Source: Octopus vulgaris (taxonomy: Eukaryota). From it: a DNA stretch of 64,000 nt. A program made the translations under genes and the position numbers. The notes beneath the pieces are model-generated. The model did not search any database, had not been told where the DNA came from, and saw only the letters and a list, made by a program, of their open reading frames with translations. The stretch covers positions 43,710,001-43,774,000 of the forward strand of contig OX597820.1 in NCBI GenBank assembly GCA_951406725.2, read 5' to 3'. Shown here in pieces: positions 6,456-62,980 of this stretch (position 1 is its first letter; each line of letters opens with the position of its first letter).

Positions 6456-6897
6456 GTATAAGGAAAATAAGACAAGGTAGAAAATGCTAAAATAATTTTA
6501 TCATAAAATATACTTTGTAATGGTTAGCACCGGTTTCTGCCTTTTCGACTTTTTGGACTATGAGTAAAACAAAGGTGTTTTGTGTATTCTTGTACATCCA
6601 GTGGCAAGAGAAAAATTCAAAGTTTATATCAATCTTTTCCATGTAAAAATAAATGCCTTGAATTATTTTTTGTTTAATGCATGCTTCTATCGAGAATCAA
6701 ATATTGATATTTATCTATACACTTTTATTTAAAATGGAGGAAAAGTACACCTTCTATGAATTAGTGTGTGTGTTTGTATTTTATTTTAAATAATGTGTGT
6801 GTGTTAGAAGATGGTAAAATGATTTATCCTGAAATGCATTGTGTAATGGTTAGTACTGGTTTCTGTCTTTCCGACTTCTTCAACTAAAACACAGGTG
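6456..6897 (-). mobile_element. Penelope/retrozyme-like fragment with two decayed HHR copies 326 bp apart
   Basis: Direct repeat TGGTTAG(C/T)AC(C/T)GGTTTCTG at 6521 and 6847; minus strand reads TAG TTGAAGA AGTC GGAAA GACA GAAAC CA GTA CTA. Confidence 0.5.
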
Positions 6898-7199
6898 GAT
6901 ATTAATTAAGAAGAAAAACAATTAAATTGAAGAAAAAATAAAATTAAATGTTTTATAAATATGTCCATAGTCTTCAAATAAGTTTTCCTTTTCCTCACTC
7001 TCTCTCTCTTTCTATCTCTCTCTCTCTCTCTCTCTCTCTCCCTCTATCTCCCACTTACTCTCTTTCCTTGGTGAAGGTTCGTAAGGCCGGTAGTAGCAGA
7101 TCTGAAAAAGTGTGTATATGGTGTAAAGAGATATTTGATTCTGAAGTTTAAGTAACCACAGCCGAAGAAGGTGAAAGCGAAGAAGAAAAGGGAGGGGAA

Positions 7200-7295
7200 G
7201 AAGAAAAGGAAGAAGAAGAAGAAGAAGAAGAAGAAGAAGAAGAAGAAGAAGAAGGAGAAGAAGAAGAAGAAGAAGAAGAAGAAGAAGAAGAAGAA
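7200..7295. repeat. (AAG)n microsatellite
   Basis: Seen directly. Confidence 0.95.
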
Positions 7296-7298
7296 AAT

Positions 7299-7889
7299 TA
7301 CGGGAGAGGTATTACCTAGTAGTAAAGACTGTCCGTGGAATTTAATAGTCATGTGACCTCGCAGTGACCTATTGTGGTTGTAGTAGTAGTAGTAGTAAAT
7401 TCGTGGGTGGAGACCGTTCTAAACATATCTATCCTTTTTAATATTTCCGTGGATATTATTTTATGATTCCCTTAGTAGTTTCAAATGTGGTGGAATAATT
7501 CAAAAGGGTTAACATTTTGCGATAAAATAAGATTATTTACTAATGCGCTGATTATAAATTGCATTGTCCTTAAAATTACAGAGGAGAAAAGTTCTAAAGT
7601 TCGGTTATAAATTTAGGGAAAATGCAGCCTTACAATCAGCGCATTGGCAAAGAATCGTATTTTATATACCTCAACCGCAGATGACACTACTACAGAGATC
7701 TTAGAATAATACCCACAGAAATATTTAAAGCATAGATATATTTAGAACAGTCGTTACTCGCGGATTTATTTAGAACAATCCCTACTCTTACTACTGCTAC
7801 TACAACAACAACAGATCACTTTGAGGCCACTTGACCATTAAAGCAGATTCCACACACAGTCATTACTACTGGATAATACTACTCCCGTC
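7299..7889. repeat. Diverged ~590 bp inverted repeat (fold-back element)
   Basis: Arms align across a centre near 7590, e.g. AATGCGCTGATT/AATCAGCGCATT and GTTCTAAACATATCTAT/ATAGATATATTTAGAAC. Confidence 0.75.
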
Positions 7890-8184
7890 TTTATATTTTT
7901 CTTCTTTTTCCTCTTCTATGTGTCTATTTCACCGTAATGATTTCTACAGGGTGAAAATATTACTCCACCTATCACTCAACCCATCTCCAACTTTCTCTAA
8001 GTTTATACATTGCATTTATTCCTTTGACGTCATCACCAGACCACTATTTTCTCTCTGGCTGCATATGTGTCCCTCTATCACTACTTCTACTTCTTTTTCT
8101 CACTAGATAAAAAATACGTGAGGTAGAGTGGGGAAGACACAGAAGACACAGAACATACACACACACACACACAAACGCATATAC

Positions 8185-8312
8185 ATATATATATATATAT
8201 ATATATATATATATATATATATATATATATATATATATATATATATATATATATATATATATATATATATATATATATATATATATATATATATATATAT
8301 ATATATATATAT
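8185..8312. repeat. (TA)n microsatellite
   Basis: Seen directly. Confidence 0.95.
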
Positions 8313-59357: not shown

Positions 59358-59528
59358 AATAATAATAATGATGATGATGATGATGATGATGATGACGATG
59401 ATGACAACGATGATGATTATAATAATAATCATAATAATAATAATAATAATAATAATAATAATAATAATAATAATAATAATAATAATAATGCTTAACAACA
59501 ATATATAAAATACTATCAGGCTTAACAA

Positions 59529-59918
59529 TGGAATGGAAGCACTCCGTCGGTTACGACGACGGGAGTTCCGGTTGATCCGAATCAACGGAACAGCCTGCTC
59601 GGGAAATTAACGTGTAAGTGGCTGAGCACTCCACAGACACGTGTACCCTTAACGTAGTTCTCGGGGATATTCAGCGTGACACAGAGAGTGACAAGGCCGG
59701 CCCTTTGAAATACAGGTACGACAGAAATAGGAAGTAAGAGTGAGAGAAAGTTGTGGTGAAAGAGCACAGCAGGGATCACCACTATTCCTGCCGGAGCCTC
59801 GTGGAGCTTTTAGGTGTTTTCGCTCAATAAACACTCACAACGCCCGGTCTGGGAATCGAAACCGCGATCCTACGACCGCGAGTCCACTGCCCTAACCACT
59901 GGGCCATTGCGCCTCCAC
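59529..59918 (-). mobile_element. Full-length tRNA-derived SINE family C with 12 bp TSD
   Basis: TSD CAGGCTTAACAA at 59517-28 and 59919-30; A-box TGGCCCAGTGG, B-box GTTTCGATTCC. Confidence 0.9.
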
Positions 59919-59989
59919 CAGGCTTAACAACCATGTATAAAATACAAACATCTCTCTTGACTGAATACGCCTATAGTTTTTTTAATAGG

Positions 59990-62380
59990 AAGTGGCATCT
60001 TCCCTAGTGAGCAAAAAGGATGTAAACGTGGGTCCTATGGTTGTAAAAACAGCTACTCATCAATAAGATGATCTTGGAAGATTGTTCCAAACAACACAAG
60101 AATTCGTCGATAGCCTGGACAGATTATAAAAAAGCTTTTGATAGTCTACCACATACTGGATTCATAAACGTTTGGAAATTCATAAATTAGCACCTACTCT
60201 ACGAAACCTCTTGTCTGTAAGTATGAGATCATGGGCAATGAACACTGCCTTTGAACAGTGACAATGAATCTTTCAATGCTGGAGATGTAAGAATTTCCTG
60301 TGGTTTTTTCCAGGGTTACTCTCTATCACCACTCACCTTTTGTCTAGACTTAATACCTCTCTCGAAATTGCTCGAAATATAAATCATATTTTTAGATGGA
60401 TGATTTAAAACGCTTTGCAAAAATGACCAACAACTACAGGGCTTACTCTAACAATTGTTAAACGGTTCAGTGATGGCATCAGGATAGAATTTGGCCTCGA
60501 TAAATGTACAAAAGCTACTTTATCAGAGGTAAAAAAAAATAGAAACATCCAACGTTAATCTTGACCAACAGTATATCTTAATGGAGTCAGGACCAGCAGA
60601 GAGCTACAAATACGTAGGAGTATTTGAAGGTGATGGGTAAGGACTTTGTCAACATCGGCTTCTAATTTACTTATGTTTTGACAGACATTCACTAGAACAA
60701 TACTCCGTGCAAAACGAAATATATGGGCCCCTAATCATAACACCAACTTGAATTTCAAACTAGTCTCTTGCGTTCTCTGGGTGAGACTTGGAGTCAGCTT
60801 GTACAAATACAAAGCAAAAGCCAAACATATAAGAAGAAGAAGAAGAAGAAGAAGAAGAAGAAGAAGAAGAAGAAGAAGAAGAAGAAGAAGAAGAAGAAGA
60901 AGAAGAAGAAGAAGAAGAAGAAGAAGAAGAAGAAGAAGAAGGAAAAGAACAACAACAACAACAATTTGAGGACAGAGAAAATTTTCAGATTCGTACTTTG
61001 TTGCTGAATATCATGGAAAGAGACTGTTAGGTGTTTGACAACTGGTTACTGTCTGCTATCACAGAATTCAACTGAGTAAGTAAAAAAGAGGTCTAAGAAA
61101 TTAAATGATGCATTAAGAAGAATAATGCTAATGATTGAGAAATAGTAAATATATGGTATGAAACGGTAAAGAAATGGGGAAAAGGAAGAACAACAGGATA
61201 AACAAATGCAAAGAAATAGAATTATATGGCCCTTTCATGTGACAAACCCAGAATGTTAGAACGAAAGACCGTTGGCTTTGTTTGACGGACGGGAACATGA
61301 ATTGTGATAAAGAAATTATGACCACTTAGGTACAAACCGTTAGAAGAAATCTGATAAAGGCGAAGATCGACAAAACTCAAACAGACGGCAGATATAAAAT
61401 ATTCAGGAATAAGGCGAAAGTATCAGTCACGTTTTGAGTGAGCACAAAGGAGTACAAGCGCAGGCAACATTGTGTAGGCAAAGAAATGTATTAGAATGAT
61501 AGCCGAGTGTTCCTTCCCTCAAAGGTGGTATGAACACGAGACTGTGATAGAGAATGGGAATTACGAGGTGGTATCAAAAGATTCCCGAACTAAATGATGT
61601 TACTTACTTACCTAAGTTTTAGCATCGTCTCCTTCGAAATATTTACCTTGCGCGGCAATACATCGGTCTCAGCGTTCCTGTCACTTGTAGAATCCAGCCT
61701 GGAAGTTGTTTTCTGAAAGCGAGTCGAGGACCTTCTGCGATTTGCTGTGAATTTAGACGACGGTGTTCGAACAATGTCCTTTCAGCTATATTTTCACCTT
61801 CGGCAAGAGATGGAAGTCTGCAGCTGCTATATCTGGCGGAAAGGGCGGATGCAGAAGCGATACCAAGATGATTGTTTTTGGCGAGAAGCTCCCGAGTGAG
61901 GAGAGCTTATTGACAAGATGTATTGTCGTCGTGTAGAATCCAAGTTTTCGTGCTCCACAGATCCGGTTGCTTTCAGCGAATGTCCTCCCTCAAACGCTTC
62001 GAAACGTTGCAGTAGAACTCTCGATTGATTGTCTGGCCCTGGGGGTCGAATTCGCGATGCACAATACCATATTTTCGGGAGTGACGTTCGTATCAGGTTT
62101 TTTAGCTCACTCATCGTTTCTCCAAGAAGTTCTTCCACTTTTGAAACGCTCTTGACACTCGAAACAACATTGTGTACAACCTATTACATCATCGCCCTAA
62201 GCTTACCGAAGCATGTTCAATGTCTCTGTAGCAGACTTCCCAACCGCATGTTGACATCTGTCAACACAACTAGTCCTGGAACATTTTGATACACCTTGTA
62301 CAAGATATTGTGGGACTACCCTATAAAGACTGGCCATAATATTGAAACAAGAAGACCACATATGACTATAGAGGACAAAA
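59990..62380 (+). pseudogene. Decayed R4/Dong-like LINE pieces (RT, then zinc knuckle/RLE region), interrupted by (GAA)n and a mariner
   Basis: WTDYKKAFDSLPHTWI, GFFQGYSLSPL, MDDLK; ENGNY|KILWDYPIKT..RRPH. Confidence 0.75.
61564..62298 (-). mobile_element. Internally deleted mariner element
   Basis: TIRs CGAGGTGGTATCAAAAGATTCC / GGAACATTTTGATACACCTTG with TA duplication; minus-strand GIVHREFDPQGQTINREFYCNV..WILHDDN. Confidence 0.85.
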
Positions 62381-62390
62381 TAAGATTTCC

Positions 62391-62980
62391 GTAAATATAA
62401 ATATTAACAGGCGAAACCATTGGTACGTAGGTAATCGTTTTTATTTCGTATACTTTCATTTGCCTTGCTCCTTTTTACATTCTGGCGTTTTTCTTCAGAA
62501 CACACTCCTCGTGGTAAGGCGATTTGACGTCTATATTTAGCATATTAGGTGTCCACCTTGGTGGTCATTCCTCTTAATTTTGTACGCAATATAATTTTTA
62601 ATCTTCAGATTTTTTTTAAATATGCTAAGCCACTGGTTTTAATTGATTAATATCAATTTGTACCCTCATTATTTAATTTCTAAATAACAATGTTCTCTAA
62701 CCGGCAAATTAGCTGCAGAAATTTATTAACTGCAGAGTTGTTTCCGGCCTCAGCGCGCCAAAATGAAGACACTTGAAAAATACCTCCAAATATTATTTTT
62801 AAAACTTTATAATGCTCTCTTTCGGGTGAACGTCCTGTGTCTAGTTCTGGAAATCGTGTTTTGTAAGCGACAGACGGCTCTAATGAGCCTGCAGATATTT
62901 ACATTCGTAAATATTAACAAGTGAAACCATTACTACGTAGGTAATCGTCTTAAATTTCATATATTTTCATTTGTCTTGCA
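62391..62980 (+). mobile_element. Terminally redundant ~510 nt element with a decayed HHR (62873-62949)
   Basis: TAAATATTAACA.G.GAAACCATT..TACGTAGGTAATCGT repeated 510 bp apart; core CUAAUGA GCCUG..GAAAC..GUA. Confidence 0.6.

Follow-up and report, generated by a model that had tools for sequence, protein, structure and literature searches.

The closest described relatives of the elements treated here are the hammerhead ribozymes of Penelope-like elements (PLEs) and the non-long terminal repeat (non-LTR) retrozymes of animals. Metazoan PLEs carry type I hammerheads in their pseudo-LTRs (pLTRs), with a U3:A8 core, a small palindromic helix III and a predicted dimeric mode of action; each genome holds many families, mostly as single motifs from truncated elements, and opposite-strand pairs lie 100-700 bp apart (PMC4209133). 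Variants of the hammerhead core are described in PMC3088659. Non-LTR retrozymes are tandem units without an open reading frame (ORF) that contain one type I hammerhead each, have a GC content below 45%, run from monomers to multimers and co-occur with PLEs; the study that defined them showed circular RNAs and named PLEs as likely drivers (PMC7229834), and a preprint argues that retrozymes, at 51-972 bp, are non-autonomous PLE derivatives (bioRxiv 10.64898/2026.07.22.740005). PLE clades, tails, inversions and (TA)n targets are set out in PMC8557442, and a purified PLE was reported to start reverse transcription internally at two adjacent sites, to extend both strands and to prefer AT-rich DNA, which explains the PLE tail (PMC11167929). 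For an octopus, 31 recently active Penelope-like families are on record, in a report whose accessible portion leaves ribozymes unmentioned (PMC13282606). Here we analyse a 64,000-nt stretch of the Octopus vulgaris genome (contig OX597820.1; hereafter the window), in which a sequence-only reading had proposed about twelve hammerhead motifs belonging to a diverse family of non-coding mobile elements.

We consider it likely that these motifs are type I hammerheads of endonuclease-bearing (EN+) PLEs and of their ORF-less tandem derivatives, the non-LTR retrozymes. The kind of system is already known: U3:A8 cores, palindromic helix III and opposite-strand pairs had been reported (PMC4209133), as had the link between retrozymes and Penelope (PMC7229834; bioRxiv 10.64898/2026.07.22.740005), and in this respect the proposal was overstated. 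The remainder of that proposal, Penelope-like and retrozyme-type hammerheads of several lineages that favour (TA)n tracts, is borne out by the families, the PLE and the arrays described below. What the locus adds is the host group, explicit PLE marks on tandem arrays and a young candidate driver. In a mostly open-access literature we found no published report of a hammerhead, retrozyme or ribozyme from octopus or cephalopods; the main text of PMC4209133 names no cephalopod-type host, and its supplements may list cephalopod motifs.

Hammerhead motifs in the window

All twelve stretches were found in place, and they fall into nine interspersed families (two motifs each in A, B and H, one each in C, D, E, F, G and I; Table 1); a partial thirteenth copy, in family F, had been overlooked. 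Five motifs, in which the conserved core (3-9 strand, GAAA, UH) sits where three helices meet and helix I is open, passed at least one structural descriptor unchanged (41422+, 41163-, 27633+, 56435+ and 16106-). A strict type I descriptor matched the window twice and a relaxed one four times, against a mean of 0.0-0.1 and a maximum of 1 in dinucleotide-shuffled sequence (60 shuffles per setting), and a second descriptor matched four times against 0.3 ± 0.5 (maximum 1) in 30 shuffles. The motif rate therefore lies above that of shuffled sequence, at 2-4 matches versus 0.0-0.3.

Relatives of the window inserts were sought in a 2.8-Gb assembly of 227 contigs. In the DNA and protein searches the best-scoring candidates were scored (the top 40 for family inserts), and the candidate counts given below are first-look matches. 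Six further motifs (28133, 49602, 62873, 6524, 6850 and 28411) have relatives whose majority sequence possesses an intact core, helix I, helix II and palindromic helix III; because the relatives were picked by DNA homology alone, these majorities do not presuppose a hammerhead fold. The motif at 17170 is doubtful, its family majority having A at position 4 and a non-palindromic helix III, which leaves eleven of the twelve proposed type I hammerheads standing. Among the six that had been called well formed, two need correction in detail: 28133 has a helix I mismatch, and 27627 carries a substitution that breaks the helix III palindrome.

The folds also left signals of covariation. Inner positions of helix III pair in 27 of 37 cases, against 13.9 ± 2.9 without a palindrome rule (maximum 23 in 2000 draws). 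With no 3:8 rule imposed, positions 3 and 8 form a Watson-Crick pair in 23 of the 30 motif classes (17 C:G, 6 U:A). Copies of family A show one compensatory event, a helix II change from A-U to G-C (24 versus 8 copies). The hammerhead structure is thus selected rather than a product of chance. That the folds are accidents of AT-rich, repetitive DNA (the window has 35% GC and abundant microsatellites) might be suspected from the failure of every window motif to reach Rfam cut-offs, from the seven of twelve that fail the descriptors and from the doubtful case at 17170; we reject this for eleven motifs on the shuffle controls, the intact family majorities, the unimposed palindrome and 3:8 signals and the position of motifs in pLTRs, and regard it as extremely improbable.

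Rfam performed poorly on these motifs. A whole-window scan returned no hammerhead among the 150 listed, higher-ranking ones of 281 matches, in which microsatellite microRNA matches dominated; on short stretches no hammerhead was returned for A or B, and family D scored 22.9 bits with Hammerhead_HH9, under the 52-bit cut-off. The Infernal check that had been suggested thus brought no window motif to the hammerhead gathering score, whereas descriptors find five of the twelve; six other genomic loci among 73 scored passed Hammerhead_1. Further CTGANGA sites in the window (for example 15130-, 16843- and 62498-) have no hammerhead fold under any descriptor.

Across the motifs helix II ranges from 10 to 68 nt. 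Compared with the hammerheads of PMC4209133, several families here have a longer helix II (27-68 nt) and palindromes of 6-10 nt, and family A has C4. Two structural features that had been noted were recovered, namely a fold-back inversion with 342-nt arms (40941-41282 and 41303-41644) and terminal redundancy (62398-62483 versus 62908-62994, 83%). The reported abutment to (TA)n tracts holds for eight of the twelve motifs, which lie within 300 nt of at least five TA repeats (as do 32% of random window positions), and not for 62873, 17170, 6850 and 6524.

Table 1. Hammerhead-bearing features of the window, by family (window positions)
Family	Feature	Positions	Strand	Hammerhead or evidence
A	Inverted fragment: 3' half of hammerhead plus downstream sequence	27212-27288	-	98.7% to 27704-27780
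A	Single complete 588-nt unit without ORF, its tail ending in (TA)n	27283-27912	+	C4 hammerhead 27627-27718
A	Second copy, 5'-truncated, between (TA)n tracts	56246-56720	+	96.6% to 27-kb copy
B	Left arm of 0.95 unit, (TA)n at its 3' end	40834-41302	-	Hammerhead 41065-41171
B	Right arm of 0.69 unit, (TA)n at its 3' end	41303-41644	+	Canonical-core hammerhead 41414-41520
C	Older repeat of ~270 nt between two (TA)n tracts	28133-28300	+	Hammerhead 28133-28200, one helix I mismatch
D	5'-truncated 3' end (pLTR) of young autonomous PLE	15986-16250	-	pLTR identity, descriptor match
E	Old repeat with ~460-nt period	49434-49790	+	Decayed hammerhead 49602-49659
F	One unit of ~510-530 nt, terminal redundancy	62398-62978	+	Partial hammerhead 62398-62451, decayed 62873-62949
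G	Old repeat with ~350-nt period	17171-17333	+	Doubtful hammerhead-like fold 17170-17219
H	Copy 1: decayed 3' end, apparently of older Neptune/Nematis-type PLE	6414-6577	-	U3:A8 remnant 6524-6560
H	Copy 2: hammerhead remnant 6850-6887	6805-6900	-	80% identical to copy 1, 327-nt spacing
I	Repeat with U3:A8 remnant 28411-28457	28333-28897	-	1876 candidates; majority intact

A young autonomous PLE and two families of ORF-less arrays

Family D represents the 3' terminus of a PLE that is intact and has amplified recently. The window copy (260 nt, with a short fold-back at 16220-16267) contains an intact U3:A8 hammerhead at 16065-16117 and is 99.2-99.6% identical to both pLTRs of a full-length locus (L121); the motif, which had been taken for a non-coding element in its own right, is therefore the truncated end of an autonomous reverse transcriptase (RT)-endonuclease element. 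In full-length D, two D matches 4.35 kb apart bracket RT and GIY-YIG ORFs (RVT_1, E=1.6e-7; GIY-YIG, E=2.5e-4), in the layout pLTR-ORF1-ORF2-pLTR with DKG and YLDD motifs and a CX4CXXC linker. All 85 scored protein matches (31,807 candidates) are 98-100% identical, about 38 of them with a clean 784-aa frame; 509 homologues carry RT/GIY-YIG domains, and the ribozyme core has 2195 exact genome matches.

D bears the marks of EN+ PLEs: pLTRs, partial tandems, inverted 5'-truncated copies and a hammerhead near the 3' end. Its linker points to the Neptune or Nematis clade, which have a CX2-5CXXC linker in common (PMC8557442), and the EN+ elements of these clades further resemble D in their DKG RT, C-terminal GIY-YIG domain with two cysteines before YIG, pLTRs, partial tandems, inverted 5'-truncated copies and (TA)n targets (PMC8557442). 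D differs from them in an upstream ORF that overlaps the RT ORF in the -1 frame. This ORF, 446 aa from stop to stop, shares 64 nt with the 784-aa RT ORF at a T TTT TTA heptamer, an arrangement that suggests programmed frameshifting (D ORFs at L220:4841-1210 and L121:6768-3163, both minus strand); the L121 copy has an additional break in an A-run of ORF2.

Two other window families appear akin to D. The H and D 3' regions are 62-67% identical in DNA, a GIY-YIG fragment lies upstream of H on the same strand in 2 of 15 loci (L141 and L147), and a search with copy 1 gave 1429 candidates, the best at 82-91%. Judged by these identities, the motifs at 6524 and 6850 derive from older relatives of the D element rather than from independent non-coding elements, and the same probably applies to 28411 in family I, whose resemblance to the D 3' end is weak (62% over 114 nt, E=0.002) and seen in DNA alone, with no ORF link. 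A Hydra-clade PLE is also abundant in the genome (907 aa, RW and DKT motifs, 15,419 candidates; L221:4134-1411 and L121:9366-7436, both minus strand), and its repeats carry hammerheads with a long helix II and a CATATG helix III, none of which lies in the window.

Judged on their DNA, families A and B qualify as non-LTR retrozymes, being dispersed, ORF-less tandem units with a complete type I hammerhead. The A unit, with a 61-nt helix II and a 6-nt palindrome in its ribozyme, has a GC content of 37%, a longest ATG ORF of 48 aa and 454 exact genome matches to its palindromic core; for the B monomer (491-495 nt) the corresponding figures are 36%, 66 aa and 955 core matches. Both unit lengths fall within the range reported for animal retrozymes. 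Cleavage is predicted after 27712 in the first A copy, after 56514 in the second (intact C4 hammerhead 56429-56520, with the compensatory pair change in helix II) and after 41512 in the right arm of B. The type I fold, head-to-tail units and (TA)n flanks rule out a plant LTR retrozyme, which has a type III hammerhead, true LTRs, a primer-binding site and polypurine tract, and a 4-bp target-site duplication.

Spacing and clustering were assessed in the first 100 listed exact core matches of each family. Same-strand neighbours lie one unit apart in 29 of 32 instances for A and 41 of 41 for B, and all 32 strand switches are head-to-head with the 3' ends outward; the matches form 58 (A) and 37 (B) clusters. 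Copies truncated at the 5' side occur in both families and, with the fixed 3' ends described below, are signs of retrotransposition. Inverted insertions can be multimeric on both sides (3.5/3.4, 8.4/3.1 and 2.9/3.7 units), with ends at fixed sites. The top copies are ~99% identical (98-99%). A and B are thus young and were dispersed as ready-made head-to-tail arrays with the insertion marks of D.

These marks are specific. In each of A, B and D, the junction between the 3' end and (TA)n falls into two fixed zones, both of them beyond the predicted cut: +190-207 and +293-304 in A, +127-132 and +232-241 in B, and +56 (17/53) and +89-96 (32/53) in D. In 18 of 19 A/B singletons the 3' end borders on TA repeats, at one of a few fixed offsets, both arms of inverted A/B insertions end in the fixed zones, and insertion ends show TA/AT microhomology with the target. 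Because fixed internal ends and the use of both strands match the behaviour of the purified PLE (PMC11167929), A and B, which code for nothing, carry a PLE-specific insertion signature. That enzyme, the PAc Poseidon of Anolis, likewise has two internal RT start sites downstream of the ribozyme, AT-rich targets and extension of both strands; it differs in starting within an ORF, at an AC-rich stem-loop, whereas the starts here lie in non-coding sequence and the ends show microhomology (PMC11167929). Relative to the animal retrozymes described so far, the arrays here stand out by such explicit marks (TA targets, head-to-head multimeric arms and two fixed 3' ends).

A and B might instead be the terminal repeats of other autonomous PLEs, with arrays that grew locally by unequal crossover or slippage. 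D and H are terminal repeats of this sort, the genome searches see top candidates only, and local tandem expansion of a PLE terminus has been proposed (bioRxiv 10.64898/2026.07.22.740005). We consider this improbable, since no 3-5-kb same-strand spacing brackets an ORF among 200 listed A/B cores, among 19 singletons drawn in list order (12 from A, 7 from B) there is no extension into a PLE ORF, and both arms of inverted insertions are multimeric and end at fixed sites, as fits arrays made at insertion. The single 6.65-kb same-strand gap held no ORF, only microsatellite and a B fragment.

Several side observations concern these two families. If read through, the head-to-head B insertion (40941-41644) would give a near-perfect double-stranded RNA hairpin of ~342 bp, a possible substrate for editing or small interfering RNAs. 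One locus (L222, G000:C2:184020900-184028200) has kilobase-long (TA)n runs between A and B fragments, and several PLE-type families insert side by side in the same (TA)n tracts. A and F have the same helix I and downstream bases, which suggests a common origin. A splice-donor-like GT followed by pyrimidine tracts comes after the ribozyme in A, B and F (27713-27790, 41513-41605 and 62950-62990); we rejected the idea of an intron for now because no skipped form occurred in contigs or in genomic matches (44 to A and 109 to B, with overlapping loci entering repeatedly), and the majority A sequence is without an acceptor AG. Of 24 sequencing runs listed, 20 contain part of the A unit, none of these being recorded as RNA. 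In contigs of four runs (three guessed to be RNA, one of unspecified kind) the head-to-tail joint of the A unit (587/588) was present in all four, which is uninformative on circles, and A>G/T>C differences in these contigs were not callable as editing, several of them matching the 56-kb subfamily copy.

Mobilisation of A and B

Taken together, these data are consistent with the following scheme. The unit would be transcribed at more than one unit length, and the RT-GIY-YIG protein of a PLE, acting in trans, would nick a (TA)n tract; reverse transcription would begin within the unit, 55-305 nt past the ribozyme at either of two fixed sites, run backwards through one to about eight units and then stop. 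Priming from both nicked strands would produce head-to-head arms, each ending at a fixed site. The palindromic helix III may let two ribozymes of a multimer fold jointly and cut unit-length RNA, which, by analogy with published systems, may be ligated to a circle and serve as a more-than-unit template. With the 3' ends of all three families (A, B and D) situated past the point of cleavage, the template is not a linear monomer that has been cut; a circle or an uncut multimer remains. Predicted circular folds of A and B are more stable than 40 shuffles (z=-4.8 and -5.9), and helix III self-duplexes reach -8 to -17 kcal/mol against about 0 as hairpins; cleavage may accordingly proceed in dimers through this palindrome, as in the model of PMC4209133.

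The insertion signature makes it highly probable that a PLE protein mobilised A and B in trans. D or a close relative is the likeliest driver; for D in particular we would stop a little short of an even chance. A partner search (profile of 120 D homologues and a motif scan of loci) revealed only D-like and Hydra-like PLE fragments, the Penelope/Poseidon, Nematis and Naiad families lying outside its sample. Mobilisation by another enzyme, either the Hydra-clade PLE or a long interspersed element (LINE) with A and B as SINE-like (short interspersed element-like) passengers, seems unlikely to us. The Hydra-clade PLE is abundant, its elements target (TA)n (PMC8557442), and the A ribozyme, with its long helix II, is closer in shape to the Hydra type than to that of D; the best Hydra-type matches are nevertheless 90-97% identical, hence older than A and B, and their 3' ends are without the ACCCT motif discussed below. 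Passengers of a LINE would have a poly(A) or tandem tail, which A and B have not, and fixed internal starts are a PLE mark (PMC11167929). A Hydra endonuclease found beside one A copy (L231) has a ribozyme of its own.

A short motif offers a lead to D itself. ACCCT is present at two places in A, one in B and one within the 600 nt that follow the D ribozyme, always ~25 nt or less before a main end, and it precedes 1 of 462 TA junctions in the genome sample. As a post-hoc hint, this might indicate that D mobilises A and B. ACCCT may be akin to a telomere-repeat template. Beyond this lies a fuller picture, a living driver-passenger set in which D would recognise ACCCU as the internal start signal of A and B, two viroid-like RNAs with no other kinship, and the passengers would be cut, circularised and rolling-copied from both nicked strands into head-to-head arrays; we regard it as speculative and, as a whole, rather unlikely.

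A number of observations count against the scheme and its circular template. ACCCT was picked post hoc, and two of six main ends (B +130, D +56) are without it. In D the motif sits in a loop, in A and B at the closure of a hairpin, and in null draws some 5-mer was common to four of six windows in 3.5% (a GC-rich 5-mer in <0.1%). Among the top-scoring candidates searched there was no autonomous element sharing A or B sequence, a scope that might overlook a rare parent with an ORF. By sensitive BLAST, A/B monomers had no match in the D and Hydra-type 3' regions. Because A and B match neither PLE, we infer their trans-mobilisation by D indirectly. Of reported Xenopus families, 24 of 57 matched known transposable elements (21 of the 22 elements being PLEs), whereas A and B have no pLTR homologue in the D and Hydra-type 3' regions. 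Substitutions within versus between arrays number 2.8 versus 4.0 in A (n=6/39) and 2.4 versus 2.3 in B (n=89/346), so monomers of one array do not clearly resemble each other more than those of different arrays, although assembly errors have probably blurred the comparison. One A array is heterogeneous, its monomers differing at three sites. Cleavage is not needed for insertion by the purified PLE (PMC11167929), and 8 of 9 Xenopus retrozyme dimers stayed uncleaved in vitro (bioRxiv 10.64898/2026.07.22.740005).

Alternatively, a PLE may have mobilised A and B from an uncut, multimeric read-through transcript, the ribozyme being a retained motif, possibly protein-assisted, that insertion can dispense with, and no circle needed. 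The heterogeneous A array fits such a template, the cut site precedes every mapped 3' end, ribozyme mutants left insertion unchanged and no RNA sequencing reads ended at the cut site (PMC11167929), and Naiads amplify without canonical hammerheads (PMC8557442). However, 5' truncation only shortens arrays, yet arms of up to ~8 units (8.4) persist; one B array has a private variant common to 7 of 7 monomers; core and pairs are conserved with covariation; and circles have been shown for coral, mussel and axolotl retrozymes (PMC7229834). We treat the uncut multimer as a serious contender that falls somewhat short of an even prospect, and circles as templates of A and B as about evenly poised.

Older families, motif density and implications

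The remaining families are older. C gave 841 candidates at ~90% identity and is not tandem, with four copies in a 200-kb genome sample; relatives of E are 71-84% identical and form direct repeats of 434-476 nt in 5 of 20 loci; F gave 3589 candidates at 78-89%, with a period of 510-534 nt in 18 of 20 loci. The majority sequence of each of these three is intact. Relatives of G are 76-85% identical, with direct repeats of 346-352 nt in 3 of 15 loci. C, E, F, G, H and I are best explained as older, mostly dead relics of PLEs and their ORF-less derivatives.

The rate of one motif per ~5 kb suggested by the sequence-only reading applies to this window only. In 20 evenly spaced 10-kb stretches (contigs 1-3 only), we counted 10 descriptor matches (shuffles 0.7 ± 0.8) and 11 homology matches, or about one per 18-20 kb; both counts include self-hits, the homology library having been seeded from the window and partly from the sample. 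The window is ~3-4 times denser in motifs than the genome sample, in part because the library came from the window. Extrapolated from the 200-kb sample, the genome may carry about 1.4-1.5 x 10^5 motifs (95% range 0.7-2.8 x 10^5). Locus flanks and the random sample also contained about a dozen more hammerhead families, some with U3:A8 (loci including L054, L057, L060, L067, L080, L082, L123, L137, L138, L150, L205 and L219), and a second C4 family (L080:3151).

Other features of the window lie outside these families. An insert of ~880 nt between two (TA)n tracts (15066-15945) has CTGATGA at 15130 (-) but does not fold as a hammerhead; for its 3' part, neither a relative in the loci examined nor a PLE protein match emerged. 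A repeat at 16700-17150 has CTGAAGA at 16843 (-), which a long helix II may follow, and two partial relatives in the loci examined. Also present are a mariner-type transposase fragment (32149-32804, minus strand; PF01359), a LINE-type RT fragment (9460-9849, minus strand; PF00078, below cut-off), a helicase-like ORF that is probably a Helitron (2331-2939), and a SINE-like repeat of ~170-230 nt, presumably resembling an octopus SINE, in at least 15 copies, some of them tandem (including 1-190, 20904-21136, 41960-42825, 45635-46040 and 51910-52320).

Our results extend PLE hammerheads and retrozymes to a cephalopod genome, in which the motifs escape Rfam. Direct evidence that retrozyme-type units were inserted with PLE marks comes from the arrays and supports a hypothesis drawn so far from co-occurrence and phylogeny. 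With an intact RT-endonuclease and two young passengers whose start sites are mapped, the questions of the driver, of the circular template and of the role of PLE ribozymes become testable in one organism. If true, the driver-passenger set would identify the signal in cis through which retrozymes of animals exploit Penelope enzymes, and would provide a ready in vitro system for studying a link inferred to date from co-occurrence and pLTR phylogeny; the presumed likeness of that signal to a telomere template would tie it to a telomerase-related RT.

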